In this document: piece by piece, positions 8,935 to 64,000 of the stretch
Position numbering within the stretch: the stretch's first letter is position 1
Layout of the letters: each line of letters begins with the position of its first letter
Sequence record: OK040907
Strand: one strand, 5' to 3'
Length of the DNA: 64,000 bases
DNA from: Enterobacteria phage Ac3
Made by a program: the position numbers and the translations under genes
Notes under the pieces: generated by a model
Seen by the model: the letters and a program-made list of their open reading frames with translations, nothing else
Database searches by the model: none
What the model was told of the DNA's origin: nothing

Positions 8935-9176
8935 TAAATTTTGCGAGCCAGATCACGGATCTGACCAACAGTGTAGTCCTGGATGTACACTTTGTTGATC
9001 GGTTCATCGATGAATTTTGCCATGCTTTCGATATCCTTTTGGATCTCTTCCAGAGAGTAAACAATTTTCAGCGCTTTTTCGCGAATCGTAACGTTGTCCG
9101 GACCCGGGTTCTCCTGGATTACTGCTTTAACGTTCGTCATCAGAGATTTGAACTGATACCAAGACAGCTCAATCAT
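8934..9176 (-). CDS. small hypothetical protein in the dexA.1 position, with E. coli-optimised-looking codon usage
   Basis: 80 aa from internal Met MIELSWYQF; ctg/ccg/cgt-rich codons unlike neighbours; paralog pattern with 9169-9429; ATGATTGA overlap upstream and TAATG overlap with dexA. Confidence 0.55.
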   Translation of the reverse strand: MIELSWYQFKSLMTNVKAVIQENPGPDNVTIREKALKIVYSLEEIQKDIESMAKFIDEPINKVYIQDYTVGQIRDLARKI

Positions 9177-12165: not shown

Positions 12166-12768
12166 TTATAGATTAAATCCTTCAAAATCAAGAGTATAGA
12201 TAGTGTATGTTGAATACTTTTTATACTCATATCTATCCGCAATTCTAAATACACTTCCAGCTGGTATCATTACTTCTTGTTCATCTGAAACTAATTCCAT
12301 ATTACGATAACGATGGCTATCCGGAAACTTAAAGTTTGGATTGTATTCTTTACAGCGTAGAGCTTTTATAGCATACTCCTGGAAATTGAATACCATAGGA
12401 GCTTTGAATTCAAAAATAACCTGTGTGTTATACTCTAAACCGGAAGCAAAATGTAGAGCTATATTTTTATCATATGAAGCTGATACTACTTTATCAAATG
12501 TAATAATATCAATTCCTTGATTTAACACTTGCTTAGTCTCGACTGGAACACCTCTCCAAAGAGGTTTATCGTTTGGAACCAAACGAGATTTGATTATTTC
12601 ATTTAACCAAGAATGGTCATCTGGTTTGTTGGTAATACAATGAATTAAAAGTTCAATTTCAGATAAATTAAACCCTTCAGAAAGCAATTCTTCACGAATA
12701 GAAGCACGCACCGATGCATCCATTGATTTTATTTTAAAATCTTTTAGTTGCATTACTGAGTATTTCAT
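12166..12768 (-). CDS. modA: ADP-ribosyltransferase ModA
   Basis: 200-aa ORF; size and order (srd-modA-modB) match T4. Confidence 0.7.
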   Translation of the reverse strand: MKYSVMQLKDFKIKSMDASVRASIREELLSEGFNLSEIELLIHCITNKPDDHSWLNEIIKSRLVPNDKPLWRGVPVETKQVLNQGIDIITFDKVVSASYDKNIALHFASGLEYNTQVIFEFKAPMVFNFQEYAIKALRCKEYNPNFKFPDSHRYRNMELVSDEQEVMIPAGSVFRIADRYEYKKYSTYTIYTLDFEGFNL

Positions 12769-13388
12769 TCAACTACCTCAATATCATAAACTTTAAATGT
12801 TCCAAATGAATCGTGTAATTTTTCTTTTGAAATAGAATTTATTTTATACTTTCCAATTGGAATCATCCATTCTTGTTCATGTACAATCATCATTAAGTTA
12901 TCAGTTCTTTCTGAATCTAACCCATCAGTATCTTCATACGTGTACTTAAACTCAGTATTAGGAGAAGAAAGTATAATATCGCTGATATGGTCAGAATAAT
13001 TAAAAGCTTTATCAGTTTTTAAACGAAGTATTGTTTCAGTGAAATATTCAGCATAAGAAAAAGAACACGCTGTATGCAAACTAGTAGTAAATGAATCTAC
13101 CCTGTTCGTTGAAAACACTTCTCCAACCTGTAAATCTTTAATAAGTTCTTTTGTCGATTTTGATATACCACGATATAATTGATAAGGCGATTTAGTTAAA
13201 TGCTTTTTAATGATTTTATTCAACTGTCTGTGAAGAGCTTCATTCTTTTTGGCTTCCATACATTGCCAAAGAACAGACTGCTCAAAGTCAGTAAATTTTT
13301 CACAGACTTTTTTATACATATCATATTGAAAATCAACGCTTTCAGCTTTTATAGATAACTGTTCAACATCTGCAGGATTAATAATCAT
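12765..13388 (-). CDS. modB: ADP-ribosyltransferase ModB
   Basis: 207-aa ORF overlapping modA start by 4 nt. Confidence 0.7.
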   Translation of the reverse strand: MIINPADVEQLSIKAESVDFQYDMYKKVCEKFTDFEQSVLWQCMEAKKNEALHRQLNKIIKKHLTKSPYQLYRGISKSTKELIKDLQVGEVFSTNRVDSFTTSLHTACSFSYAEYFTETILRLKTDKAFNYSDHISDIILSSPNTEFKYTYEDTDGLDSERTDNLMMIVHEQEWMIPIGKYKINSISKEKLHDSFGTFKVYDIEVVE

Positions 13389-18274: not shown

Positions 18275-18907
18275 TTAACCTTTGTTCATAAAAGCGTTGA
18301 AAATTTGGTCATCGATGGAAACGTTCACTTTAGACTGTTCCTCGAACGGCAGTTCGTAACCGCAAATAACGATTTTATGGTCGATACCGAAATAGACAGA
18401 GGCAATGTGGTTAATGTTATTTTCCGTGAAATCCAGGTCCACATCAATGTCTTTCTGGGAAACAGACAGCGGGTAGTTAATACGAATGATACGGTTATCC
18501 TTAACGAAGATGCCACCAACGTACTCGGTGTTACGTTTGAAGTTGACACGTTTACGGAAAGAGAAATATTCCGGTTCTTTGTGTGCACGGCTCATCGGGC
18601 ACAGGGAGTAGCTAGAGTAGCTAATGTCGAAACCTACACCTTCAATATGCGCGAGGGTGTCATGGTTAAACCAGTTGTAATCATAAGCCAGGTCCATGAT
18701 ATTGTAATAAGTAAACGGTACTGGGTTCACATCGTGGGTAGTACCTTTGAAGTCAGCCCATGCAACGATTTCGTTATCTTTTACGATCACAAAAATCGTA
18801 CCGATGAGGTAGCCACGGTTATTTTCGTCTGGAGTGATGTTATAACACTGAGCATCCGGGAATTTACCGTACTTGAACGGTGGGTTTTTATGCATGTAAT
18901 AGATCAT
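18275..18907 (-). CDS. hypothetical protein with E. coli-optimised-looking codon usage
   Basis: 210 aa from ATG at 18907 (MIYYMHKNPPF...), ending SIDDQIFNAFMNKG; ctg/ccg/cgt-rich; starts 1 nt after sp stop. Confidence 0.55.
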   Translation of the reverse strand: MIYYMHKNPPFKYGKFPDAQCYNITPDENNRGYLIGTIFVIVKDNEIVAWADFKGTTHDVNPVPFTYYNIMDLAYDYNWFNHDTLAHIEGVGFDISYSSYSLCPMSRAHKEPEYFSFRKRVNFKRNTEYVGGIFVKDNRIIRINYPLSVSQKDIDVDLDFTENNINHIASVYFGIDHKIVICGYELPFEEQSKVNVSIDDQIFNAFMNKG

Positions 18908-31960: not shown

Positions 31961-32674
31961 ATGAACTATAAACTGATCTACGAAAAACTGATCAGCAACG
32001 CCAAATCCCGTAAACTGGACTGTTACACCGAGTCTCATCACATTATCCCGCGCTGCCTGAATGGCTCCGATGACGCGAGCAACCTGGTAGACCTGACCCC
32101 TGAGGAACATTACGTTGCACACCAGCTCCTGGTTAAAATTTATCCGTCCGAGCCAAAACTGATTTACGCTGCCAACATGATGACTGTATCCACTAAATAT
32201 GCTAAACGCAATAACAAAACGTTCGGTTGGATCCGTCGCAAACTGTGGGAAATCGAAAAAAACAAAGAATTCTCTCAGGAAACCCGTAAGAAAATGTCCG
32301 ATGCGGTTGCCAACAAGGCGCGCCTGACCTGCCCGCACTGTGGTAAATCTGGCCTGTCTGGTAACATGAATCGTTGGCACTTCGATAATTGCCCGAACCA
32401 CCCGAATCCGAAAGTGCGTCCTCCGATGTCTAAAGAACACCGTAATAACATCAGCAACGGTCTGAAAGCAATTATCCTGGAGGAAACCTCTTGCGAATTC
32501 TGCGGTATGATCGGCAAGAAATGCGTGATTGCAGCTCACCGTAACTTCTGTAAGAAAAACCCGAACGGCCGTAAGAAAACCGAGAAAACCGGTACTTGCG
32601 TGCACTGCGGTAAAGTTACGACCTTTGGCAACCTGAGCCGTTGGCACAACGACAACTGCAAGCACAAACACTAA
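31961..32674 (+). CDS. HNH homing-endonuclease-like protein with C-terminal Cys-rich zinc-finger repeats; codon-optimised-looking
   Basis: 237-aa plus-strand ORF with ESHHIIPRCLNGSDDASNLVDLTPEEHYVAH motif; ctg/ccg/cgt codons; stop overlaps gene 46 stop (convergent). Confidence 0.65.
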   Translation: MNYKLIYEKLISNAKSRKLDCYTESHHIIPRCLNGSDDASNLVDLTPEEHYVAHQLLVKIYPSEPKLIYAANMMTVSTKYAKRNNKTFGWIRRKLWEIEKNKEFSQETRKKMSDAVANKARLTCPHCGKSGLSGNMNRWHFDNCPNHPNPKVRPPMSKEHRNNISNGLKAIILEETSCEFCGMIGKKCVIAAHRNFCKKNPNGRKKTEKTGTCVHCGKVTTFGNLSRWHNDNCKHKH

Positions 32675-34359
32675 TTGATCGTAGCAACGGAGAAACGACC
32701 CACTTTCTCCATTTTGATGTGCTGACCGTAGTCCTGTGGGTCGTGGTCTTTGTGGCTGATAATGAAAAAGTTAGTATCTTTCAGGCCATCGAGAATTTTA
32801 GCGACGTTTTTGATACCTTCGGCGTCGAACGCGCCATCGTACACTTCATCCAGGAACAGGCAAGAGATTTTTACACCAGAGACTTTTTCGGCGATGTCAC
32901 GCCAGGTGAACAGGAGGGCGATATCGATACGTGCCTTTTCGCCTTGGGAGAAGGATGCATAAGAGAAATCTTCGCGGCCGCGGGATTTGATAGTTTCGTT
33001 GAATTCCTCGTCCAGGGTGAAAACATAGTCCGCCTCCATAATTTTCAGATAATGGTTGATCTGTTTGTTGAACAGCGGGATGTATTTCTTAATGATCGCG
33101 CCCTTGATGCCGCTGTCTTTCAGCATGTCGGTCAGGATGCCACGGTGGTATTTTTCCATCACCAGGTTGGTTTTAGTCTTCACGATCTTATCCAGCTCTT
33201 CCTGCAGGAGGGCAATTTCGTCCGCGTGGTCAATGAATTCAGAGGAAGCTTTTTCAATGGCAGCTTTAACTTTCTTAGCTTTGTCAACCGTGGTAATCAG
33301 GGACTGTTTCTTGTTACGAATATCGTTCGCCAGAGACTGTTGGGTCTTAATGTTATCACGATATTCGTCCACCAGGACTTTCAGGTTATCGCGGTGGGTG
33401 GACAGTTGTTCAAAAGAGTGGGTGCATTCGCTCACCTTATCTTTAATTTTGCTCACAACTTTATCACCGCTGGACAGTTGAGACAGGCAGGTCGGACACA
33501 GACCGCCCTCGTGGTACATGTTGATAACTTTGTTGTAGCTATCGATTTTGGATTTAATCAGCACGGCCTCCTGGCCAATTTTGTTAAAAGCATCAGTAGG
33601 GTCTTCGTCCAGCACGATGTTGACCAGACGTTCATTCGCTTCCTCGATTTCGCTTTTCAGGGTACGAGCTTCTTTAGCCAGATCGTCGTACATGTTCTGC
33701 AGGCGCGTCAGGTTGTCACCGGTCAGTTTCTTCTGACGTTCTACGTTGTCGTTGTAGATCTTGATCTGTTGGATAATAGAGTCTTTCTTCACATCCAGTA
33801 CCTGGTTCTGAGAGTTCAGTTCACGGATCAGTGCTTTGTTCAGTTTGTCCATCTCCGCCAGGGTGCCAACCTCCAGGAGGTCTTCGACCAGCTTACGGCG
33901 TGCTGGAGTGCTCAGGCCCATGAACGGAGTGTAACCCGCAGTGCCGAGCACAACAATCTGCTTGAAGCTAGCGTAAGACATACCGATCAGCTGTTCGAAC
34001 TCGGCCTGAAAATCTTTGGAAGAGGCAGATTCGTTCAGACGGGTGCCGTTCACAGTGATTTCAAAGACGTTTGGTTTTTGACCGCGTTTGATGTAATATT
34101 TCTTTTCGTCATATTCCATCCACAGTTCTACCAGGAGTTCTTTCTTATTGGTGCTGTTGATCAGCTGGCCTTTCTTAACGTCGCGGAACGGTTTACCGAA
34201 GAGGCCGAAGGTAATAGCCTCCAGCATGGTAGATTTACCGCCACCGTTACGACCAGTGATCAGGGTTTTCTGAACTTTGTCCAGCTGGATATCAACGCCG
34301 TTCTGGCCTACGCTCATAATGTTCTTGTATTTAACACGGTTCAGTTTAAAGGATTTCAT
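32671..34359 (-). CDS. 46: recombination endonuclease subunit (SbcC/Rad50-like ATPase)
   Basis: 562-aa ORF, Walker A GRNGGGKST, coiled coil; protein is gp46-like but DNA is E. coli-optimised-looking. Confidence 0.85.
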   Translation of the reverse strand: MKSFKLNRVKYKNIMSVGQNGVDIQLDKVQKTLITGRNGGGKSTMLEAITFGLFGKPFRDVKKGQLINSTNKKELLVELWMEYDEKKYYIKRGQKPNVFEITVNGTRLNESASSKDFQAEFEQLIGMSYASFKQIVVLGTAGYTPFMGLSTPARRKLVEDLLEVGTLAEMDKLNKALIRELNSQNQVLDVKKDSIIQQIKIYNDNVERQKKLTGDNLTRLQNMYDDLAKEARTLKSEIEEANERLVNIVLDEDPTDAFNKIGQEAVLIKSKIDSYNKVINMYHEGGLCPTCLSQLSSGDKVVSKIKDKVSECTHSFEQLSTHRDNLKVLVDEYRDNIKTQQSLANDIRNKKQSLITTVDKAKKVKAAIEKASSEFIDHADEIALLQEELDKIVKTKTNLVMEKYHRGILTDMLKDSGIKGAIIKKYIPLFNKQINHYLKIMEADYVFTLDEEFNETIKSRGREDFSYASFSQGEKARIDIALLFTWRDIAEKVSGVKISCLFLDEVYDGAFDAEGIKNVAKILDGLKDTNFFIISHKDHDPQDYGQHIKMEKVGRFSVATIN

Positions 34360-34374
34360 TTTGTATCCAATTGT

Positions 34375-35225
34375 TTAGAGGCTAGAGAATTCTTTTACCA
34401 GGGCTTGCAGGCTAGCTTCGATCGGATAACCATTTTTCACCAGCATTTTACGGAACATCACGTGTTTAGGACGGTTATAGCTGATCCACAGTTCGTACAG
34501 TTTGTCTTTGTTGTCCCAGTGGTAACCTTTGCGACGGCTGGCAATGTGAGCCTTACGAATCTCCGGATTTTTCCAGCTTGCAGCGACAGAGTTGGAAATC
34601 GGCTTTTGATATTTTGAGACGGGCACAGCGGAGCGAAAGGCTTACGAGTGTTGAGTTTGGTGCGTTTCATGGTCAGACCGTTTGCCAGATGCCACTGGAA
34701 TTTCTGTTTAGTTTTGAAGTTATTCAGACGTTCTTTGTTATCCTTACGGTTTTTCGCTACGGAGAAGTATTTCAGTGCGCGTTCACGAGCTGCATTACGG
34801 TTCTGTGGGTTGGAGTAATACTGTTGCAGGCGTTTAGAAATGGTATCGGAAACATCCTGTTTGATAAAAGAGTATTCTGCCGCAATCAGATCAACTTCTG
34901 CCAGGCTGAGGTTTTTATAGGTTTTGCCAGACATCATACGATTCAGCGCGTTCAGCATTTTACCGTTTTTACCTTTTGCCAGGAGGAAGTGTGCTTTAAA
35001 GTGGTTAAAGTGGCTGAGGTTCACCAGGTTCCAGGTAGATTTGAGATATTCCGGGAAGATAGATTTCGGCAGCACGTGATGTGCTTCGGTCTTGCCCGGA
35101 GTCTTAACGGTGCTGTTAACGCTAATGAAGTTGATATAGGACTTAGCGTCTTCCTCAGACAGCGCCAGTTTTTCCACCAGTTCTTTGATCAGGAATTCAT
35201 CGTTGATGTCCAGTTTGAAGTTTTT
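34375..35225 (-). pseudogene. HNH endonuclease-like gene, disrupted (frameshift, no canonical start); codon-optimised-looking
   Basis: EAHHVLPKSIFPEY HNH motif in one frame (to about 34640); C-terminal part continues in another frame (34375-34626) after an in-frame TAA; no ATG upstream of the recoded N-terminal segment. Confidence 0.45.
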
Positions 35226-35440
35226 AACAAAAGATTCCTTTTAATGTATCTTTTAGACCATTCTATCATATCATCATAATCTAAAAAGTATTCATCAAAT
35301 TCAGCCATGCAAACAACGCCTTGTGCTGTTTTTGATGTAATATAAATTATTCCAACATATCTAGAATCTTCTTCGGTATAATCAATATTTGCTATAAATT
35401 CATCATTAATGTCAAATGTCGAAAACTTCACAGTATGCAT
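35189..35440 (-). CDS. hypothetical protein, 3' end uncertain
   Basis: native-composition ORF from Met MHTVKFSTFDINDEF; its reading frame runs into the recoded block; contains a motif (FDINDEF) repeated at the start of 34375-35225. Confidence 0.3.
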   Translation of the reverse strand: MHTVKFSTFDINDEFIANIDYTEEDSRYVGIIYITSKTAQGVVCMAEFDEYFLDYDDMIEWSKRYIKRNLLLKTSNWTSTMNS

Positions 35441-46148: not shown

Positions 46149-46319
46149 TTAGTTGCGCAGCTTATTCAGTTCCTCGTCATCGATCCAAGACTCCAGACCG
46201 GACGGCAGAGCACATTCGATCTCCCACAGGAGTTCCTCAATTTTCTGCAGGCGATCCAGTTCCTCAGCCGGGATGGTCACCATGGACGGTGCACGGCTTA
46301 CGTTAATGTCATAGATCAT
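46149..46319 (-). CDS. small acidic protein with E. coli-optimised-looking codon usage
   Basis: 56-aa ORF below track cutoff (MIYDINVSRAPSMVTIPAEELDRLQKIEELLWEIECALPSGLESWIDDEELNKLRN); GC-rich island bounded by native genes. Confidence 0.5.
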   Translation of the reverse strand: MIYDINVSRAPSMVTIPAEELDRLQKIEELLWEIECALPSGLESWIDDEELNKLRN

Positions 46320-54637: not shown

Positions 54638-55648
54638 TTACTTATAGTAGGAGCGGTGGTTCTCCAGGTAAACTTTTTCCAGAAAGTCATCCCAGAAACC
54701 CATGTCAACCTTTTGCTGCATGCCATTCTTGGATGCTTCCGTGCTCGCAGCCTCCACCTGATCAACTACGTCCTCGAGGAATTCCTGCACGGTTTTGAAC
54801 GGGTGCTTGCCCAGTTTGACATCCAGGATAAACGGCGCATCCTGCAGTGGGTAGATCAGGTCGCCGGTTTTGTAAATTTCCAGGAGCTGCAGGCCACCGC
54901 GGCATGCATGGGACAGAGCTTTCCAGTCGATGCCTTCGTTTGCCTCTGCTTTGCGGGCGCGTTCGCCGTATTCAGCATCCAGTTTATTCAGGGATTGTTT
55001 CAGTTCGATCAGGCTCAGGGTAGTCTGATATTTACGACCCAGCACCGTATAGAAAGTTTGCGGGCCGGTTTTTTCGTGGTTGTGAAACACCCATTCACAG
55101 AATTCGTTTTCCGGCAGGCGGTGTTTGATATCTTCGATTTTGGTACGGCGTTGACCCTGAGTGCCGTCTTCGCGATAAACGTTGCGCTGGTCCGGGATCT
55201 GATTCACGACTTTCAGGACGTCGCGCAGAGCGGCCAGACGGGAGCCCTTAACACCATATTTAGAGGCTTGTTTGCGTACATAGCCCAGGTAAGATTTCAT
55301 ATTGGTAGTGTAGAAGCGGCTGCGGTTGTCCTGAATGAATTTCCAAACGTCAGGCAGATCGCTCTTAACCACCAGTTCTGGCGGCGTATGCAGCATGTCG
55401 AGTGCCACGGTCTCACCGTCCGCAGCCAGTTTGAAAAAATACTTGAGGCTATACAGTTCGTGGTCGATGTCATCTTTGGTATTCTTGCTAGAGGTATTGT
55501 TGGTGTTTTTAGACATGTGTTCTTTCACGTTGCCGATCAGAATGTCACGTGCCGGTGGCACGAAGATCTCTTTGAAGTCGACATCGCTTTCCGGGGTGGA
55601 AGTGCCGTACAGGTGGCTGCCAAAGTAGGATTTCATCACAGTCTTCAT
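54638..55648 (-). CDS. Pol-beta-superfamily nucleotidyltransferase-like protein; codon-optimised-looking
   Basis: 336-aa ORF with N-terminal GS-x11-DVD motif (YFGSHLYGTSTPESDVDF) and candidate third acidic residue in ALDMLH; ctg/ccg/cgt-rich DNA. Confidence 0.55.
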   Translation of the reverse strand: MKTVMKSYFGSHLYGTSTPESDVDFKEIFVPPARDILIGNVKEHMSKNTNNTSSKNTKDDIDHELYSLKYFFKLAADGETVALDMLHTPPELVVKSDLPDVWKFIQDNRSRFYTTNMKSYLGYVRKQASKYGVKGSRLAALRDVLKVVNQIPDQRNVYREDGTQGQRRTKIEDIKHRLPENEFCEWVFHNHEKTGPQTFYTVLGRKYQTTLSLIELKQSLNKLDAEYGERARKAEANEGIDWKALSHACRGGLQLLEIYKTGDLIYPLQDAPFILDVKLGKHPFKTVQEFLEDVVDQVEAASTEASKNGMQQKVDMGFWDDFLEKVYLENHRSYYK

Positions 55649-56109
55649 TATTCAGCTTTGTATTCGATCACCGGACACACTTTCGCTTTGCGCGCTTTCA
55701 GGAACTCAACAATGATAGATTTCTTCGGTTGGATTGGCGGCAGGCCTTTGTAAGCGCGATCGATGTTTTCAACGTGCAGCGCGTAATCTTTCTTCCATTT
55801 GTAGTCTTTGTATTTCTCACGCAGGTGCGCCGGAATCACGAAGGAGCCGATAATCAGGAGAACCACCAGGAGTGCCAGAATGAACGCGGATGGCAGGAGG
55901 GTCCACAGGCTACCGAAGATCAGCCAGCGCTGCAGGGATTCAGCACAGATAATAGTCAGACCAACCAGGATGGCACAACCGAAGATGGAAACGAAAAACG
56001 TCGGGATGGCGATAGACCAGAAGTACGCGCACAGGGTTTTAGGGCGCTGCCACTCGTCGTTAAACAGTTTGAACAGCTTATAGTGCCAAGAGTTTTCATT
56101 AATGATCAT
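55648..56109 (-). CDS. two-transmembrane-helix membrane protein; codon-optimised-looking
   Basis: 153-aa ORF with two long hydrophobic segments; TAATG overlap with the nucleotidyltransferase gene; native RBS upstream. Confidence 0.55.
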   Translation of the reverse strand: MIINENSWHYKLFKLFNDEWQRPKTLCAYFWSIAIPTFFVSIFGCAILVGLTIICAESLQRWLIFGSLWTLLPSAFILALLVVLLIIGSFVIPAHLREKYKDYKWKKDYALHVENIDRAYKGLPPIQPKKSIIVEFLKARKAKVCPVIEYKAE

Positions 56110-56111
56110 AA

Positions 56112-56633
56112 TTATCCTTTCATTGAAGGCGTAACGGTTGTTAAATACTTAATCATAGCTTCAGCTTCTGATTTTGATAATGAAATTTCTCCATTGCTTT
56201 GACGAATAGAAATAAAATCCGGATGACGGTCACCACCAGCTTTTAAAACACACATATAAGTATCAACTTCGCCTTCAATATTTGAAATGATTGAAGCAGT
56301 TCCACATGAATGCGGTTTTTGATAAATCAATACAGCTTTTCTTCCACCATTTGACTGTTCATAGGCTTTTAATACATCAAACAAATCAGTTCTTTTATCA
56401 ATAGCTAAAATGTTATTTTCATCTTCAATGTTAAATCCTTCGGATACTTCATAAAGCGTTACCCATAAATCACCGATGTCAATAACAGCATTTACTTTTC
56501 CACAGCTTTCAAGAGTATGACAAATTTTCTTGATTTCGTCATAACTCATTTTAATAATATCATCTCCTTGGCTAAGAAAGATGTCATTTTTAAATTCAAC
56601 ACGAATTAAACCACTTCCACTTGAAATAAACAT
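56112..56633 (-). CDS. hypothetical protein (paralog pair with 56640-57185)
   Basis: 173-aa ORF; similar C-terminal pattern EA.A.IKYL..V.P.M. Confidence 0.5.
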   Translation of the reverse strand: MFISSGSGLIRVEFKNDIFLSQGDDIIKMSYDEIKKICHTLESCGKVNAVIDIGDLWVTLYEVSEGFNIEDENNILAIDKRTDLFDVLKAYEQSNGGRKAVLIYQKPHSCGTASIISNIEGEVDTYMCVLKAGGDRHPDFISIRQSNGEISLSKSEAEAMIKYLTTVTPSMKG

Positions 56634-56639
56634 ATTTCC

Positions 56640-57185
56640 TCACTTTGAAATCATAGTTGGAATAACAGAATCAAGATAAGTCTTTAGTGCAATAGCTTCG
56701 TCTTTGGTAAATGTAATGATATGTGATCGAAAATCGTCAATTTGACGAATAGATACTACATCTCCCTCTTCATAGCATTTTGACACATTTAAAATAGTTT
56801 CATCATTCTGATTGCAAGCGTTAGTAATAATAGCATTGCAATTTTTAAACCATTTTAAACTATGTTTTCTTTCATTAGAATAATAAAAATATTTAATCTT
56901 ATCTATAAAACTATCCCAATGGATAACTGATAAGCATATTGACTCGCTTTCAATATTAAATCCTGGGCATGAAGAATAAAAATGAATTTTATGCTCATCA
57001 TTAATGCTTACAATTTTATCAGTATAAGGATTTTCAATTTTGGTTAAATGAATGATTTCACTAGGCGTAAAATACAGCATATCGTCTTCTTGTGTCAAAC
57101 GATACATATTATTTACTTTTTCTATAGCCAATTCACCAAAAAGTGAACTAACTTCTAATACTAATCGTTTCGCCTCGCTCATCAT
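56640..57185 (-). CDS. hypothetical protein (paralog pair with 56112-56633)
   Basis: 181-aa ORF. Confidence 0.5.
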   Translation of the reverse strand: MMSEAKRLVLEVSSLFGELAIEKVNNMYRLTQEDDMLYFTPSEIIHLTKIENPYTDKIVSINDEHKIHFYSSCPGFNIESESICLSVIHWDSFIDKIKYFYYSNERKHSLKWFKNCNAIITNACNQNDETILNVSKCYEEGDVVSIRQIDDFRSHIITFTKDEAIALKTYLDSVIPTMISK

Positions 57186-57317
57186 TACATACTCCTTTGA
57201 ACCATATCAATAATGTTATTCACCAGATTATAAGTAAACATTGGGTAATTATATTGAATCATCACATACACAACAAACAAAACTTTCATTCTCTTCTCCT
57301 TGGCAGTTGACAAGATT

Positions 57318-57347
57318 ACTATACCATAACCTTGCCAACTTGTAAAC
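57318..57347 (-). promoter_or_regulatory. early promoter (GTTTAC - 18 nt - TATAGT)
   Basis: plus actata 57318-57323, gtaaac 57342-57347. Confidence 0.5.
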
Positions 57348-57349
57348 CA

Positions 57350-57523
57350 TTAAATGGCGTTTTCAATAAAATTCTGAAGCTTTGTGTGAGCATCAACCAT
57401 GATTTTCATTTCTTCTTTGGCGAAAGCTGTACCTCTTTCCCGAGAAGAACATTCATAGTCAGAAACTGCATTAGCATATTCTTCGATTAGTTTCATTAAA
57501 AACATCTGTTTTTCAGTTTTCAT
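57350..57523 (-). CDS. small hypothetical protein
   Basis: 57-aa ORF below track cutoff (MKTEKQMFLMKLIEEYANAVSDYECSS...). Confidence 0.35.
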   Translation of the reverse strand: MKTEKQMFLMKLIEEYANAVSDYECSSRERGTAFAKEEMKIMVDAHTKLQNFIENAI

Positions 57524-57707
57524 TATTCCACCTAATCATTTCAAGATATTGAACTAACTTAGCTTTAGATTTATCCAAATCCTTTTTAGCTGCTTCTATA
57601 CCGTCGTATGAATATCCTTCACAATGCTCAACTGCTAATTGATATGAATCTATTTCAATATCACGTGCTAATTTAATGATTTTTTCAAACTGTTCGCGTG
57701 TTAGCAT
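57513..57707 (-). CDS. small hypothetical protein
   Basis: 64-aa ORF. Confidence 0.4.
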   Translation of the reverse strand: MLTREQFEKIIKLARDIEIDSYQLAVEHCEGYSYDGIEAAKKDLDKSKAKLVQYLEMIRWNNEN

Positions 57708-57709
57708 AC

Positions 57710-57913
57710 TTACACTCTCGTATTATGATCGATAATTTCATCAAGAAACATATCTAACGCTTCTATAGCATTATCCACTTTAGTTTCAAAGTCTTTAATG
57801 CCTTTATTCGAAATACCCGATGAATACCAAGCAAAGTCAATCAGCTCTTCATCTGCTTTACGAATTGAAGCCACTAATTCCTTGATTTTATCTGCTTGCT
57901 CTATACTAATCAT
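57710..57913 (-). CDS. small hypothetical protein
   Basis: 67 aa from internal Met [11 protein letters not shown]; ATGA overlap with upstream gene. Confidence 0.4.
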   Translation of the reverse strand: MISIEQADKIKELVASIRKADEELIDFAWYSSGISNKGIKDFETKVDNAIEALDMFLDEIIDHNTRV

Positions 57914-58101
57914 TATTCCACCACATATGACAGAGAGAATATTGCACACGCCATGTGAGTTGCAACTTCATCACACATATTATAACGTTTCTTAAGAAGT
58001 TCTACAAGTTCTTCACTAGTAACTTCATCCATGTCGACGAAAAAATCACCATTAATGATGACGTAGATATTTCCTTCTTGATTGAGTGCTTCAATTTTCA
58101 T
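57913..58101 (-). CDS. small hypothetical protein
   Basis: 62 aa from Met [10 protein letters not shown] with AAGAGGAG RBS; downstream of promoter 58130-58159. Confidence 0.4.
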
Positions 58102-58129
58102 GATGTTCTCCTCTTTATCTGATAGTTGT

Positions 58130-58159
58130 ATAGTATCACAGCTCAAACGGAAAGTAAAC
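58130..58159 (-). promoter_or_regulatory. early promoter (GTTTAC - 18 nt - TACTAT) with conserved leader
   Basis: plus atagta 58130-58135, gtaaac 58154-58159. Confidence 0.55.
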
Positions 58160-58174
58160 CGGTAAAATGAAAAA

Positions 58175-58192
58175 AGTCTCCCGAAGGAGACT
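58175..58192 (-). terminator. hairpin with UUCG tetraloop
   Basis: plus agtctcc-cgaa-ggagact. Confidence 0.5.
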
Positions 58193-58196
58193 AATG

Positions 58197-58583
58197 TTAT
58201 TCGAGGGAAAGAAGATACTTACTCTGGTAAAACATTCCAGTAATATCATCTATCGTGCTTTGAATGGCTGGAGGCATTTCTTTATAAATGCTGTTAGATT
58301 GGTCTAGTATGCGATCAATCATTTTAATTGTGTCGGTAGGAAGTTTACTGGCATCTGGAATTGAAGGTGTGTATTTTCTACCAGAATACCCCAAATATTG
58401 CTCACCAAATTTATCAATCAAATCTGGCAACTCGGAGAAAATAAAATCGTATGCTTTGTGTCTAGCATAACTTTTAGTTTCAAAATGTGCAGAATGAAAA
58501 TAAGCTTGTGCAGCCATTAATAAACCTAAGTATTCATCTGCCTTTGAAGGTTTTCCACTTTGTGAAAAGTCGCTGAATTTCAT
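58197..58583 (-). CDS. hypothetical protein in the rI.1 position
   Basis: 128-aa ORF overlapping rI stop. Confidence 0.5.
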
Positions 58584-58873
58584 TCAGTCTCCAATTTAAT
58601 GTTCATAATTCTAGCGTATGATTGTGCCATCTCCGCGCCTCGTTCTATACATTCAAAATCAGAAGAGCACGGGTCATTTTTATAGGTCGTTCTCATAAAA
58701 CTATAGAACTGTTCAGATGATTCTACGCTTTTATTTTCAAAAAGCATATAAACATGTCTAATACCAGATTCCATAAATTTATCAAAATGAGGATCGACAT
58801 TCGCTTCAATTGGTGGAGATAAAGCAAATGACAATCCTAGCATGGCAAAAAGTGCCGTTGCTTTTAAGGCCAT
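58580..58873 (-). CDS. rI: lysis inhibition regulator RI (antiholin)
   Basis: 97-aa ORF with signal peptide MALKATALFAMLGLSFALSPPIEA and periplasmic domain. Confidence 0.8.
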   Translation of the reverse strand: MALKATALFAMLGLSFALSPPIEANVDPHFDKFMESGIRHVYMLFENKSVESSEQFYSFMRTTYKNDPCSSDFECIERGAEMAQSYARIMNIKLETE

Positions 58874-58885
58874 AAAGGCCTCCTA

Positions 58886-59098
58886 TCATTTTTGTCCTGT
58901 ATTTACTTTATGCCGATGCACGGCCTTAACTTTATCAAGGTATTTTTCAAAATTTCGCAATCTAGTATAGTCTGCCGGAGATTGGTTGAGTGATACTTCT
59001 CGACGCAAAGCTGAAATGATATTTCCAACTTCCCTACGAATTTCATCTAATTGAAGCACAGTAAGATTGCGAAGTTGCTTTTCAGTTAATTGTAGCAT
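58886..59098 (-). CDS. small hypothetical protein
   Basis: 70-aa ORF. Confidence 0.45.
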
Positions 59099-59140
59099 AT
59101 ATACCCCTTTAGTTAGATAAACCTATTTATAACTTTTGCA

Positions 59141-59722
59141 CTAACCGAGCTTTTTAGTTAATTCATTCCAATGTTTTCTACACAAAGAAACATAAATTTC
59201 ATCACCAATACAGATTTGATTACCTTCTTTAACTGGTGTTCCATCTTCCATTAATCGAGCTGTCATAATCGCTTTTTTGCCGCAATGACAAACTGCCTTT
59301 AGTTCAATAAGTTTATCTGCAATCGCTAAAAGTTCTTTAGAACCTTCAAACAATTTTCCAGCGAAATCAGTCCTTAATCCATAAGCCATAACAGGAACAT
59401 TATATGTATCAACAATTCGGCTCAATTGATGCACTTGTTCAGTTTTTAAAAACTGAGCTTCATCTACAAATACACAATGAATATCTTTTTGTGCTTCAGC
59501 CCATTTATAGAACTCGAAAATATCCATATCATCTGTAATAATATTCGCTTCCTGTTTAATTCCAATGCGAGAAACAACTTCACAGACAGAATCGCGAGTA
59601 TCAATAGCAGGCTTAAGAACTAATACACTCATTCCACGTTCTTTATAATTATGTGCAGCAGTCAAAAGAGAAGCAGATTTTCCAGCATTCATTGCTGCAT
59701 AAGTAAAAATTAAACTCGCCAT
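59141..59722 (-). CDS. tk: thymidine kinase
   Basis: 193-aa ORF MASLIFTYAAMNAGKSASLL (P-loop) with C-terminal zinc knuckle. Confidence 0.9.
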   Translation of the reverse strand: MASLIFTYAAMNAGKSASLLTAAHNYKERGMSVLVLKPAIDTRDSVCEVVSRIGIKQEANIITDDMDIFEFYKWAEAQKDIHCVFVDEAQFLKTEQVHQLSRIVDTYNVPVMAYGLRTDFAGKLFEGSKELLAIADKLIELKAVCHCGKKAIMTARLMEDGTPVKEGNQICIGDEIYVSLCRKHWNELTKKLG

Positions 59723-59731
59723 ATCACCTTC

Positions 59732-59917
59732 TTAAAGCGTATTCACATAAGCTATTAATTCATTTTCTTTCTTATCAAACCGATCAGCAAATTCTTCCTG
59801 CTGTTCAGGAGATAGCGGGCCGTATTCATCATAAAAGGTGTTTGCTTCTGTATGCTCATCTAGAAGTTCATGGATAAGCTCAAACAATTTATCTTTTTGT
59901 TCTTTACTCAGACTCAT
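59732..59917 (-). CDS. small acidic hypothetical protein
   Basis: 61-aa ORF. Confidence 0.45.
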   Translation of the reverse strand: MSLSKEQKDKLFELIHELLDEHTEANTFYDEYGPLSPEQQEEFADRFDKKENELIAYVNTL

Positions 59918-60080
59918 ATATTAATTTCCAGGAGTTTTAAAATAATTCGCTTTTGCTTAAATATTTCCATAGTTAAATGACTAGTATCTTTTTGACCGAT
60001 TCCAATGGCAAAACCTTTATTAACAGCGAGTTCAATTAAATTATCAAGCTCACGTAACACTTCGTATTGTAACTCAAAAC
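59914..60080 (-). pseudogene. 5'-truncated remnant of a native gene
   Basis: native-composition ORF tail of about 55 codons with no start codon; its upstream boundary is the edge of the recoded island 60084-60963. Confidence 0.35.
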
Positions 60081-60083
60081 TAT

Positions 60084-60514
60084 TTATTTCGGTTTACCTT
60101 CCTTCACGAAGTCTGGGTACGGATAAAAGCCAGAGTAGAAACCTTCGCCTTTGTGGTTGATACAACCTTTGTTGGAACAATAGCACCAGTAATCGAAATC
60201 GCAAGCCATTTCGTCGTTGCACAGGGCGAAAACGACCGGCCATTTACATTTTTCACAGTGCGCGTTTTTCAGGATGGAAGTCTGGGATACCGCCAGGTGA
60301 CTTTCAGGCAGTATTCCTCCACATGCTGTTTGCGACCTTTCTTGTCGATGAAGGTGTATTCAACGAAGGTACCGATGTAATCTTTATCCACGTCGTGCGG
60401 AGAGTTGATCGGGCACTTAGTACGGCAGATGCGTTCCCACTGACGAATGATTACAGCCTTGTTTTTCGGGTCGAACGGGTGTGGATAATGTACTTTTACA
60501 GCAGCGGCTCCCAA
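60084..60514 (-). pseudogene. Cys-rich protein gene split across two reading frames; codon-optimised-looking
   Basis: frame A (TTG start in track) has protein-like sequence to about 60300; frame B continues with HCEKCKWPVVFALCNDEMACDFDYWCYCSNKGCINHKGEG... to a TAA at 60084-60086; no ATG. Confidence 0.4.
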
Positions 60515-60963
60515 TCAACGATTACGATTTCCAGTTTGGAAGAATAGGTGTCCAGGATACCTTCAATGATGTCCCAGTTGCCTTTACCGATGCCGGCGCC
60601 GATGCGCGGCATGTAGATGGTTGGTTTGATCAGTTTGTTTTCACCGAATTCGTTCAGCTCCAGCATACAATTCATCAGCGCAGAATATTCAAAGTTTGGG
60701 CCCGGCTGGAACTGAGTGTACAGGTTAAAACAGTACGCTTTGTGGGTGCGAAAGTACTTTTCATACACGGAGTAGCTACCCAGTTTAGTCACGTCGCCCC
60801 ATTCGGTCTGCAGCTTGTCAGCTTCCAGGATTTTCGGAAACGCTTTGGTCAGCTGACCGGCTACACCCGCTTTCATGGTATGGAAGCAGTTACAGCCGTG
60901 AGCGATGTTTTTACCTTCGGCAAACAGCGCTACGATATCGCCTTTGATGTATTTGACAATCAT
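60496..60963 (-). CDS. macro-domain protein (Poa1p-like ADP-ribose-1''-phosphate phosphatase family); codon-optimised-looking
   Basis: 155-aa ORF with IAHGCNCFHTMKAGVAGQL and YMPRIGAGIGKGNWD motifs resembling Poa1p; ATGA overlap with upstream native gene. Confidence 0.55.
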   Translation of the reverse strand: MIVKYIKGDIVALFAEGKNIAHGCNCFHTMKAGVAGQLTKAFPKILEADKLQTEWGDVTKLGSYSVYEKYFRTHKAYCFNLYTQFQPGPNFEYSALMNCMLELNEFGENKLIKPTIYMPRIGAGIGKGNWDIIEGILDTYSSKLEIVIVDWEPLL

Positions 60964-61301
60964 CTAGTACTCAATCCTCGATTATAAGAATCTACCAAAC
61001 GGTCAACCATTGAATGACAAGCGGCTTTATCTTTCTCCTCCGCAACTGAACATTCTAAAGTATTCCACTTTTTAGCATATCGTTTTAATAATGTATCGTT
61101 TTTGTATCTGCTTGATTTATCTCTTTCTCCGTCTTTGTATGCATATATTAATTTCTGTGCAAATTCAGCTTGGCATGCTTTATTTTTCCCACAATAATCT
61201 GCCGCAGTGCGGTTTACATACTCTCTAATTTCAGTATATGATGTATCTGCTAACGCAGAAAATGAAATTAATCCTATACATAAAACCAAAATTTTAGTCA
61301 T
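60960..61301 (-). CDS. secreted hypothetical protein
   Basis: 113-aa ORF with signal peptide MTKILVLCIGLISFSALA and four Cys. Confidence 0.5.
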   Translation of the reverse strand: MTKILVLCIGLISFSALADTSYTEIREYVNRTAADYCGKNKACQAEFAQKLIYAYKDGERDKSSRYKNDTLLKRYAKKWNTLECSVAEEKDKAACHSMVDRLVDSYNRGLSTR

Positions 61302-61839
61302 TTACTATTTCCAAAAGTTTATTATTTTTAAGGTAATTAGCCTTTTCTAGGACTTCAGAAGCATATTTAGAACCTGCTTTAACATTCCATCCCGAATTAT
61401 AAGAGGATATTGCTTTTCTTATATCGCCCTTATGTATATTTAACCAATAAGAAAGTTCAATGTACGCCCAGGAAGCTGAATTGGACCGTTTATTCAACAT
61501 TCTTTTTATTTCAGCATCGGTCATATTATAACCAAGTTCCTTAACTCTTGCTCGCATAGTAGGCAAATAATTTTGGAACATTCCATAAGCGTGATGCTTT
61601 GGTTTAGATTTTAAATTAACTCCGCCAGAGCTTTCTTGCCATAAAATAGCAGCCATTATATGACCTAATCCACTCTTGTGGATGTTTTTGTGTGTTTTAT
61701 ATTTTCCATCCTTAGAAAATTGTTCCCCGAATTGATACGCGTAACGCATGTTATCGAGTTGGACATTACTGAAAGTATGCTCGGAGCTATGTGCCATCAT
61801 TGAAATGGCCAATAGACCAGCGAGTAGTGCTTTTCTCAT
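61294..61839 (-). CDS. lytic transglycosylase-like protein (SLT domain)
   Basis: 181-aa ORF with signal peptide and WQESSGG...AYGMFQ motif. Confidence 0.6.
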   Translation of the reverse strand: MRKALLAGLLAISMMAHSSEHTFSNVQLDNMRYAYQFGEQFSKDGKYKTHKNIHKSGLGHIMAAILWQESSGGVNLKSKPKHHAYGMFQNYLPTMRARVKELGYNMTDAEIKRMLNKRSNSASWAYIELSYWLNIHKGDIRKAISSYNSGWNVKAGSKYASEVLEKANYLKNNKLLEIVND

Positions 61840-61846
61840 GCTTACC

Positions 61847-62308
61847 TCATTGAGTTTTAATTACTGCTTTAGAAGCCTTTCCTGGTAAACGACGACTGTT
61901 AATAATTGCCATCCTACATTGGAGTGACGGGTCTTTGAACTTCTCATTAGGTTTACAAACCGTAAATCCAAGCCAAAGATTTCCATCTGTGATTTCTAAA
62001 CGTCCAGGACGATATTCAACCCCATCAATAAAATCCTCGTCAATGTCAGGACGCGGAGGCATACTCAGAAATTCATTAACTTCTAAAACATGGTCTTTTA
62101 TTTTATGGAATAATTCAAAAACGTATGTCTCATCAATCTCCCGTTGAATTGCGCGATCAAGAAGATGCTGAGAATATTTTAGATGAAACGATGAGACCCC
62201 TGCTGCTTTTGATGCCTCACGAATCTCATTGTTAATTTGACGAAACTCCGACTCAAAGTGACGACGAAGCTTATTTCGACGGATAAAAACTTCTGTATTG
62301 ATAGTCAT
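61847..62308 (-). CDS. regB: sequence-specific endoribonuclease RegB
   Basis: 153-aa ORF MTINTEVFIRRNKLRRHFESEFRQ...; promoter 62335-62364 upstream. Confidence 0.85.
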   Translation of the reverse strand: MTINTEVFIRRNKLRRHFESEFRQINNEIREASKAAGVSSFHLKYSQHLLDRAIQREIDETYVFELFHKIKDHVLEVNEFLSMPPRPDIDEDFIDGVEYRPGRLEITDGNLWLGFTVCKPNEKFKDPSLQCRMAIINSRRLPGKASKAVIKTQ

Positions 62309-62334
62309 GTTATTCTCCTCTTAACTGATAGAAA

Positions 62335-62364
62335 AATTATACCACAGTCAAGAGGAAAAGTAAA
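62335..62364 (-). promoter_or_regulatory. early promoter (GTTTAC - 18 nt - TATAAT)
   Basis: plus attata 62335-62340, gtaaac 62359-62364. Confidence 0.55.
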
Positions 62365-62367
62365 CAG

Positions 62368-62688
62368 TTATTCTTTAAATCTAATCAATTTATTCATAGA
62401 CTTTGAAACTTCTGCACGAACCTCATGTAAGTTTTTAAGCTGTTCAAGACGCTGCGTATAGTAAGCAATTTCATCTTCTTCGAGACAGTCCTGTGAATCT
62501 TCTTTAAGATAACGCGCATAGTCCTGGAAAGCTTTACGGACTACTTCCTGGAAGTCATCAAGACTTTGAATTTTCTTAGGAGCGGCAGATACACGACGAG
62601 GTGCAGTATAATACTCATAACCAAACCCTGCGCTTAATTGAGCCATTAGTATTTTTCCTCTGGTTGGAACACTGCGCGACAAGCCCAC
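62368..62688 (-). CDS. hypothetical protein
   Basis: 106-aa ORF. Confidence 0.5.
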
Positions 62689-62963
62689 ATACTAGCTTCT
62701 TTGAGTTTAGACTTGGCCTTTTGAATGCAGTCAATAGAATTCATAGCTTCATCTAACTTAGAGTCTGACACTTCTTCATTTCCACCTAATGTGCTGTAGA
62801 TTTCAATATACTCGTCTTCTAAAGCCTTTAAAATAAGTCCTAAACGAACTTCAGCGTCTTTGATAGCATTCACTTTACCGATTTTCTCTTCAGTATGCGG
62901 CTTATAACCTTTAATGTCTTCAATCATATTTGACTTCCTCACCAGTACATAAATCATATTCAA
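62646..62963 (-). CDS. hypothetical protein
   Basis: 105-aa ORF. Confidence 0.5.
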
Positions 62964-63141
62964 CTAAACGAATAGGTTCATGAATGCCATATCCTTGAAC
63001 AGAAATTTCTGTCGTAGGATAAATTCCATCAATATCACCCATATTCCAGGCTTCATTAAATTGCTGTTCGCCTGAATTACTAAACCACTCGGCGAAAGCA
63101 TTTAGCACATCTTTAGAACCTTCAATAATTATCTTTGCCAT
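62920..63141 (-). CDS. small hypothetical protein
   Basis: 73-aa ORF. Confidence 0.45.
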   Translation of the reverse strand: MAKIIIEGSKDVLNAFAEWFSNSGEQQFNEAWNMGDIDGIYPTTEISVQGYGIHEPIRLVEYDLCTGEEVKYD

Positions 63142-63503
63142 TACAAACTCTCAGTAAAGGTACGAGCGATAACGTCGCGCTGCTGTTCCGGAGTCAGAGA
63201 GTTAAAGCGAACTGCATAACCGGATACACGGATGGTCAGCTGCGGATATTTTTCCGGATGCTTAACTGCATCTTCCAGAGTTTCACGACGCAGAACGTTA
63301 ACGTTCAGGTGTTGACCACCTTCAATTTTAACTGTAGGTTGTGTTTCAATTTCAATTTCACGGGCATGCAAACCGTAGAAAATTTCTGGGTCTACAAAAG
63401 AGTCCTCTTTAAAGGTTTTAGAGACAATAATTCGTGCTTGAATACCATCTTCAAAATAAATAGTACCTTTATGTGTGCCTTCAAGAATTTGATATGCTTT
63501 CAT
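63141..63503 (-). CDS. autonomous glycyl radical cofactor (GrcA/YfiD-like)
   Basis: 120-aa ORF; C-terminal [61 protein letters not shown] matches E. coli GrcA from memory, with E. coli-like codons; N-terminal half is AT-rich. Confidence 0.75.
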
Positions 63504-63510
63504 ATAAACC

Positions 63511-63840
63511 TCAATTAGAAAATAAATTTATCCAAGATTGTTCTTTAATTAAAAATGGCTCAGAATCATATGCCATTAAACTTTGGGTGATTAGTCCTTT
63601 AAAAGGTCCATCAATAAATTCCATGGTAAAATATGGAATTTTATTCATTAACTGCGCGTTAGGAGCAGTGCACAAAACTCTGCATCCTTTGAATACGCCT
63701 TTTTGTAATTTGTATTGCTTGGGATAAAATTCGCTCAAAATGTTATTATTTGCCAAAATTTCAAAATGATTCACCAATTTATTTTTAATAGTTTTTGGCG
63801 AAAAATAAAGATATTCGAAAAGCTGTGTGTCTGTCATCAT
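63511..63840 (-). CDS. hypothetical protein
   Basis: 109-aa ORF. Confidence 0.5.
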
Positions 63841-64000
63841 TGCATTCCAATCACAAAAAATTGAGGACGAACTGTTTCACCTGTTTCAGCATTATAGCTT
63901 CGACAACAGTGTTGTACCGTTTTAATATGGATATTGTAAATCTTATCCATATCAGGAGCTTTAATAGGTTCGTCAATTATGTACAAGATACGAGAAAGCG
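63835..64000 (-). CDS. hypothetical protein, C-terminal fragment (5' end beyond window)
   Basis: open frame to window edge ending ...[10 protein letters not shown]; ATGA overlap with next gene. Confidence 0.35.

Follow-up and report, generated by a model that had tools for sequence, protein, structure and literature searches.

A compositional island between tk and vs in Enterobacteria phage Ac3 is very probably native RB51 sequence recoded in place, most likely encoding a Gln-type Tk.4/AdfM macrodomain

The 64,000-nt stretch of Enterobacteria phage Ac3 (sequence record OK040907; hereafter the window) contains, between the genes tk and vs, a region at 59914–60963 that raises the question of where its macro-domain gene came from. 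A first-pass annotation, made from the letters alone, had described a macro-domain cassette with optimised-looking codons that was inserted between these two genes and truncated a native gene. The comparisons described here indicate that the region very probably consists of tk.4, tk.3 and RB32ORF111c (ORF111c), the native genes of phage RB51, artificially recoded in place, with Tk.4 corresponding to the anti-DarTG2 factor AdfM, a glutamine-type macrodomain that would remove the ADP-ribose placed by DarT2.

In a megablast search with positions 59000–62000 the best matches were Enterobacteria phage RB51 and the nearly identical RB68, each at the same coordinates, in a single piece and with 93.5% identity. 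Position-by-position comparison of the whole window with bases 1–64000 of RB51 (NC_012635.1) revealed 1,614 substitutions and zero insertions or deletions (indels), and all of the substitutions except one single-nucleotide polymorphism (SNP) were located inside six gene-bounded blocks. Within the 6 kb from 57500 to 63500 there were 196 substitutions, all at 60085–60955 and with no indels, while the sequence on either side of this block, from 56105 to 64000, was otherwise identical to RB51. The RB51 annotation places tk.4 at 60496–60963, tk.3 at 60287–60499, RB32ORF111c at 60084–60290 and RB32ORF110c (ORF110c) at 59914–60087, followed by tk.2 and tk; each of the first four overlaps the next by 4 nt, and every gene in this part of the window is on the minus strand. 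The features of the window to which the rest of the analysis refers are as follows (aa, amino acids).

60085–60955, minus strand: the recoded block, with 196 substitutions and 0 indels relative to RB51.
60496–60963, minus strand: tk.4 (adfM), macro-domain protein of 155 aa; 111 of 468 nt changed, 155 of 155 residues the same, stop codon TGA changed to TAA.
60287–60499, minus strand: tk.3, 70 aa, DUF7202 (Pfam PF23832, E = 1.3e-37); 45 nt recoded, 67 of 70 residues identical to T4 Tk.3.
60084–60296, minus strand: RB32ORF111c, Cys-rich Phage_zn_bind protein (Pfam PF23895), 68 aa from 60290 or 70 aa from the ATG at 60296; 45 nt recoded.
59914–60087, minus strand: RB32ORF110c, 57 aa, phrog_3452; full length and native in sequence, start codon ATG changed to ATA by one substitution at 60085.

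These coordinates bear directly on the proposal that horizontal transfer brought in a foreign macro-domain cassette, which entered or replaced the DNA between tk and vs and cut a resident gene short. The features that favoured this proposal are real: the guanine-plus-cytosine (GC) content of the region is 0.478 against approximately 0.34 in the flanks, and three open reading frames (ORFs) have no start codon, so that between 59914 and 60514 no ORF begins with a proper ATG and fragments alone are seen. However, the position-for-position match to RB51, with its coordinates kept and no indels, refutes an insertion or replacement, and the encoded proteins are the native ones apart from the codons in the overlaps. 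The Cys-rich ORF described at 60084–60514 does lack ATG at the expected starts, but what had been taken as a single sequence split over two frames by an indel is in fact tk.3 and ORF111c, each in its natural frame and joined by an ATGA overlap, with no indel relative to RB51. The start-less tail of about 55 codons at 59914–60087 was correctly described as being of native composition, and begins with ATA, but it is not truncated at its 5' end and retains all 57 codons.

The natural relatives lead to the same result. Ten natural loci encoding an identical 155-aa Tk.4 all have the order vs, Macro, DUF7202, Phage_zn_bind, an ORF of 57–58 aa, tk.2 (in some with tk.1) and tk. Gene content and order were the same in every relative inspected, and at the gene and protein level the tk–vs interval of these relatives holds the same genes, with the gene downstream intact. 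The native 1,050-bp block was present at a coverage of at least 80% in 274 phage records, 207 of them at an identity of at least 95%. The tk.4 DNA of the natural loci with the identical protein differed from RB51 by 0–13 nt, while that of the window differed from theirs by 109–111 nt and was 23.7% different from any natural tk.4. A distant-mode search of 50,697 phage records with the recoded block gave a best match of only 78.5% identity, leaving no closer donor, and no match to the recoded DNA was obtained in plasmids or in complete E. coli genomes. An exact 39-mer of the recoded block was not found in viral contigs, and contigs from metagenomes or from GTDB (genomes of bacteria and archaea) lay outside all these searches; an example of an exact recoded 30–40-mer from the block is GATGTCCCAGTTGCCTTTACCGATGCCGGCGCCGATGCG. 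The probability that the region is a foreign cassette is consequently negligible. The RB51-type Tk.4 protein is itself widespread, with its exact sequence present in 80 blocks from public assemblies.

The genes flanking the region in the window are listed below.

60960–61301, minus strand: vs (valyl-tRNA synthetase modifier), upstream neighbour, same as RB51.
59141–59917, minus strand: tk and tk.2, downstream neighbours, same as RB51.
59141–59722, minus strand: ORF of tk.
59732–59917, minus strand: ORF of 61 aa.
61294–61839, minus strand: ORF of vs.1.

The interval between tk and tk.3 varies among these phages. T4 (locus L004, 60346–60716) has tk.1 and tk.2, RB51 (window 59732–60290) has tk.2, RB32ORF110c and RB32ORF111c, and some relatives (loci L007 and L011) have tk.1 plus both small ORFs. 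This difference in gene content between T4 and RB51 is natural mosaicism and is independent of the recoding.

The nature of the 196 substitutions was then considered. The GC content of the tk.4–tk.3–ORF111c block rises from 33.5% in native RB51 to 47.8% in the window; stretches of 880 nt in native RB51 average 0.342 and never exceed 0.406, against 0.478 at 60084–60963 (z = 5.8), and the profile climbs from approximately 0.33 to 0.47–0.52 between about 60100 and 60950 before dropping back. Third codon positions take 167 of the 191 substitutions outside the gene overlaps, and the remainder are the first- or second-position changes needed to switch between codon families of Leu, Arg and Ser. The direction of change is predominantly from AT to GC (149 substitutions, with 23 from GC to AT), and third codon positions go from a GC content of approximately 0.24 to one of approximately 0.61. 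For the recoded genes, adaptation to E. coli codon usage, expressed as the codon adaptation index (CAI), increases from 0.25–0.36 to 0.64–0.72, with untouched neighbours at 0.17–0.27; the weights follow the table of Sharp and Li, and the absolute values are approximate. The optimised appearance of the codons is thereby confirmed both as an anomaly of composition and as a shift of codon usage.

When the 1,930 recoded codons of all blocks were pooled, sixteen codons that highly expressed E. coli genes use sparingly had fallen to zero (ATA, AGA, AGG, CGA, CGG, GGA, GGG, TTA, TTG, CTA, CTT, CCC, TCA, TCG, AGT and ACA). The other codons occur in the proportions typical of such genes, for example CTG 135 times and CTC 18 times for Leu, and CGT 39 times and CGC 35 times for Arg. 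Codon-optimisation software that samples codons by weight, run on each gene separately, leaves this signature. Synonymous-only changes within coding sequences, the disappearance of codons rare in the host and the standardisation of stop codons to TAA are also what codon-optimised synthetic genes have in common with the block. Nei-Gojobori analysis of the window and RB51 tk.4 genes gave a proportion of synonymous differences (pS) above 1 and a spurious count of 4 nonsynonymous differences (Nd), which arises because multi-step synonymous changes such as TTA to CTG and AGT to TCC cross non-synonymous intermediates, and the result was used only qualitatively as an indication of saturation.

The junctions between the genes show how the substitutions were applied. 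In native RB51 these junctions are ATGA, the ATG of the downstream gene overlapping the TGA of the upstream one. At the tk.4/tk.3 junction TTA-TGA has become CTG-TAA, making the ATG of tk.3 a GTA; tk.3 also carries a change of Leu70 to Arg (L70R) and a stop codon changed from TGA to TAT, so that its frame extends to 60269. Both candidate start codons of ORF111c have been lost (to GTA and CTG), and the first in-frame ATG left is codon 28 (60209); the upstream of the two candidates is the one used for the 70-aa version of the gene called by automated gene callers in natural loci L013 and L014. The single substitution at 60085, inside the ATGA overlap with ORF110c, is the change of the ORF111c stop from TGA to TAA. 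Amino-acid changes in tk.3 and ORF111c are confined to overlap codons, and the protein of tk.4, like those of seven other recoded genes, is completely unchanged. The overlap between tk.3 and ORF111c is the most informative of the junctions.

60287–60296, minus strand: overlap of tk.3 and ORF111c; the 7 substitutions at 60286–60296 are the exact union of two separate lists of synonymous changes.

These lists are ACA to ACC, TTA to CTG and TGA to TAA in the frame of tk.3, and GTT to GTG and AGC to TCC in the frame of ORF111c as read from 60296. Sequential overwriting by whole recoded genes was rejected on the junction alignment, neither order of writing yielding the pattern at 60286–60296. The start codons of tk.3, ORF111c and ORF110c and the stop codon of tk.3 have been lost because overlapping genes were recoded independently and their TGA stops were converted to TAA, and this damage is what produced the appearance of an ORF with no ATG in two frames followed by a truncated tail.

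Could such differences have accumulated naturally, by mutation, by selection for host-adapted codons or by gene conversion from a distant T-even relative? T-even genomes are mosaic and contain segments at 70–90% identity, which gives the idea some basis. The natural tk.4 genes of T4 and RB51, however, have a pS of approximately 0.14 accompanied by two amino-acid changes, while the window and RB51 are separated by about 110 synonymous changes, to the point of saturation, and by no amino-acid change. Furthermore, the substitutions break off abruptly where the genes end, the neighbouring kilobases showing no difference at all, sixteen codons have been removed entirely, the starts of three conserved genes have been lost together, and five other blocks are alike. 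Natural divergence therefore has next to no probability, and the recoding of tk.4, tk.3 and ORF111c is almost certainly artificial. In the proposed procedure, an artificial codon optimisation, performed gene by gene either with design software or as an in-silico edit, would have given the three genes, at their native positions, the codons that highly expressed E. coli genes favour. The substitutions of each gene would have been applied regardless of its neighbour, and the change of TGA to TAA together with changes in adjacent codons would have overwritten the next ATG.

Codon-optimised phage genes are routinely made for expression screens, and an assembly chimera, formed by combining phage reads with those of expression plasmids that carry codon-optimised versions of these phage genes, would be another way of introducing such sequence. 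Separate plasmid inserts would not, however, give the mixture of substitutions from two frames seen at single-base resolution at 60286–60296. The edges of the blocks coincide exactly with gene ends and carry no vector sequence, and six blocks would require six such accidents, which makes a chimera extremely improbable.

The remaining five blocks of the window are listed below; all of them are synonymous relative to RB51.

8943–9168: dexA.1.
18284–18902: 61.2 (Pfam AdfA, anti-DarT factor A, E = 8.5e-138).
31966–35226: RB32ORF054w homing endonuclease, gene 46 and two ORFs not annotated in RefSeq.
46152–46314: RB32ORF081c.
54639–56104: nrdC.11 (RlaP nucleotidyltransferase) and RB32ORF096c.

Every annotated protein of these blocks is unchanged, and they share the E. 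coli-optimised pattern of the tk.4 block. Overlap damage of the same type is found at gene 46.1 (35225–35431, minus strand), where the stop TGA has become TTA at 35226 through recoding of the neighbouring unannotated ORF. The lone SNP outside the blocks is a T to C change at 49918, giving Q193R in nrdC.5, which may have arisen spontaneously or been introduced deliberately. RB51 and RB68 both lack it, and as a test of whether the base genome is RB68 instead of RB51 it matched neither.

These observations can be used to consider whether the recoding describes an RB51 derivative that was physically built and sequenced, by refactoring at several loci, instead of an edit of a sequence file alone. 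The SNP at 49918 resembles a spontaneous laboratory mutation, nothing else hints at a propagated stock, and most of the recoded genes are dispensable accessory genes. Nevertheless, the overlaps are corrupted in a way that a careful designer would avoid, with the loss of three start codons and of the stop codons of tk.3 and 46.1, whereas refactored phage genomes normally have their overlaps separated or protected. The essential gene 46 has been recoded as well, and no matching record (phages, plasmids or E. coli genomes) or paper was found. A built derivative is accordingly considered unlikely, and the lack of care at the overlaps points to a design that had not been validated or to an edit made in silico. 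If a propagated RB51 derivative does exist, which appears unlikely, it would have about a dozen genes codon-optimised, including 61.2/adfA and tk.4/adfM, and tk.3, ORF111c and ORF110c unintentionally knocked out. Such a phage would attest to deliberate engineering of a phage genome at several loci and would provide a ready test of the effect of codon usage on the expression of early and anti-defence genes.

The consequences for a living phage of this sequence can be predicted from the positions of the changes. Tk.4 should still be made because the ATG of tk.4 and the upstream ribosome-binding region are untouched, the first change being at 60955. Tk.3, ORF111c and ORF110c would be without normal initiation codons. 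The nearest alternative start for tk.3 is a TTG at 60514, from which the product would have 81 aa and be longer at each end; that for ORF111c is Met28, giving 41 aa without the N-terminal Cys pair, and that for ORF110c is a GTG at 60060, giving 48 aa.

The protein encoded by tk.4 is the part of the first-pass annotation that stood. The 155-aa ORF at 60496–60963 matched the Pfam Macro family (PF01661) with 25.0 bits against a cut-off of 22 over residues 22–132. An AlphaFold2 model built with 103 homologues had a mean predicted local distance difference test score (pLDDT) of 96.2 and a predicted template modelling score (pTM) of 0.91, and displayed the three-layer α/β/α macro fold. Comparison of this model with known structures using Foldseek gave a probability of 1.00 for TARG1, Poa1p, DarG and viral macrodomains, with TARG1, Poa1p, BT1257 and DarG as the top solved structures. 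Across the 103 homologues of the family Asn25 is nearly invariant, Gly33, Gly122 and Gly124 of the glycine-rich diphosphate-binding loops are invariant, and so is Gln84. Profile alignment placed Gln84 at the position of TARG1 Lys84 and Gly126 at that of TARG1 Asp125.

The closest characterised protein is T4 Tk.4/AdfM, which has the same length and Macro domain, lies in the same locus between vs and tk.3, and is identical at 153 of 155 residues (99%); it differs in that the DNA of the window is synonymously recoded and in the two residues at positions 31–32. Growth of a T4 transposon library on a DarTG2 host yielded tk.4 as the only significant hit, and a clean knockout of tk.4 makes T4 sensitive to DarTG2, following which the gene was named adfM (bioRxiv 10.1101/2025.11.20.689424). 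The earlier suggestion that the protein might reverse ADP-ribosylation of the DarT type agrees with this phenotype. A macrodomain of phage PhiKZ, likewise named AdfM although unrelated, has been shown biochemically to remove ADP-ribose from TNTC DNA modified by DarT2 (PMC13309987).

Among solved structures the best sequence matches to the family profile were BT1257 (PDB 2fg1/2afc) and SCO6735 (PDB 5e3b), with E-values of 3.9e-19 and 5.6e-15 respectively. Both are single-domain proteins like Tk.4 and have Gln at the position of TARG1 Lys84 with a conserved Asn partner, and Gln84 and Asn25 of Tk.4 align to the Gln and Asn of BT1257. They share only about 20–25% identity with Tk.4, and are bacterial housekeeping or stress proteins while Tk.4 belongs to phage counter-defence. 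Gln85 of SCO6735 occupies the position of TARG1 Lys84 and DarG Lys80, is essential and is positioned by Asn27; the enzyme hydrolyses ADP-ribose linked to thymidine on DNA, gives protection against DarT and also acts on protein substrates (PMC9411070). Human TARG1/OARD1 (PDB 4j5r, 4j5s) was the top Foldseek match to Tk.4 (E = 7.8e-10) and could be aligned along its whole length, but the Lys84/Asp125 catalytic dyad of TARG1 is replaced by Gln84 and Gly126 in Tk.4.

Compared with DarG of DarTG2 (PDB 5m3e, 5m3i, 7omu), the macrodomain fold is similar (template modelling (TM) score of about 0.78) and the substrate is presumably shared. The DarG family model NF048014 of NCBIfam gave 25.1 bits against a cut-off of 250 and covered only profile positions 2–146 of 338, and the DarG model of PADLOC gave a weak match (E = 1e-7) to the N-terminal domain only. 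Tk.4 would act like DarG yet is outside the DarG family, because it is without the C-terminal DarT-binding domain, the catalytic Lys (Lys80 of DarG, here Gln) and an adjacent darT, its neighbours being vs and tk.3. Judged from the residues aligned above, the active site of Tk.4/AdfM is of the Gln type seen in SCO6735 and not of the Lys type of DarG that was used for comparison in the preprint naming the gene, and this holds whichever origin the recoding has.

Taken together, Tk.4 is most likely a stand-alone, Gln-type, ALC1-like macrodomain that removes ADP-ribose from thymidine. The fold and residues are those of the model and the alignments; by extension from T4 Tk.4 and SCO6735, the RB51 protein would strip the ADP-ribose placed by DarT2 from thymidines of single-stranded phage DNA and so restore replication. 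The active site would consist of the invariant Gln84 held by Asn25, as in SCO6735, in place of the catalytic lysine of DarG and TARG1.

A different principal role was also weighed, in which Tk.4 would act mainly as a Poa1p-like ADP-ribose-1''-phosphate phosphatase, as a reverser of the protein or RNA ADP-ribosylation made by Alt, ModA or ModB, or as a degrader of ADP-ribose-derived immune signals. The RefSeq annotation of tk.4 as a phosphatase with an A1pp motif is in line with such a role, as is the position of Poa1p (PDB 6lfr, 6lfu) among the best fold matches (TM 0.80–0.81, E of about 2e-9). Both modA and modB are present in the same genome at 12166–13388, and the action of SCO6735 on protein substrates points in the same direction. 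Set against this, the T4 transposon screen on the DarTG2 host gave tk.4 alone and the clean knockout agrees with it, and the Gln/Asn pair of the active site matches that of the thymidine-ADP-ribose hydrolase SCO6735. A main role on these other substrates therefore appears doubtful, although phosphatase activity of the Poa1p type or reversal of ModA/ModB modification is possible as a second activity of Tk.4.

Several points weigh against the reading of the block as RB51 genes recoded in place that encode an AdfM acting on DarT2-modified DNA. The sequence itself is silent on who recoded it or why, and a literature search for a recoded RB51 or T4-like genome found nothing relevant. The absolute CAI values are approximate. 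The SNP at 49918 would fit a real propagated laboratory phage better than a purely in-silico edit. Regarding Tk.4, removal of ADP-ribose from DNA by the T4 protein was concluded by the authors by inference and not from biochemistry, and the DarTG2 phenotype was established in T4 and not in RB51 (bioRxiv 10.1101/2025.11.20.689424). The RB51 and window proteins have Lys31/Ala32 (60868–60873) where T4 has Gly31/Ser32, and these residues lie beside the ligand site in the glycine-rich loop that follows the conserved HGCNC motif.

The block as such adds no new biology, as it is standard in T4-like genomes and its macrodomain had already been identified as the anti-DarTG2 factor AdfM. The invariant Gln of the Tk.4 family does predict an SCO6735-like mechanism. 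The locus also provides a caution, namely that synonymous recoding of overlapping genes is sufficient to yield a sharp compositional island with start-less ORFs that mimics horizontal insertion and truncation. With six blocks sharing the artificial signature the sequence of the window is not in its natural state, and other foreign-looking calls within it need to be checked against RB51 first.

Some further effects of the recoding were observed. Two long antisense ORFs are present on the plus strand, one of 168 aa at 60481–60987 opposite tk.4 and one of 658 aa at 32641–34617 opposite gene 46; judged from the window sequence, we take them not to be genes but to be by-products of the raised GC content, through which the opposite strand loses stop codons. 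Scans for promoters and terminators gave counts equal to the shuffle expectation in both the window and native RB51. A few weak consensus matches and, on the non-coding strand, a single hairpin resembling a terminator disappeared with the recoding; none of these was significant.

The gene vs.4 is located 1.7 kb from tk.4 and has not been recoded. The product of vs.4 (62646–62927, minus strand) matches the Acb2/Tad1 hairpin domain of Pfam with an E-value of 2.7e-16, and because of this match vs.4 is assigned, at the level of sequence, as a homologue of Acb2, the sponge that counters the cyclic-oligonucleotide-based antiphage signalling system (CBASS).

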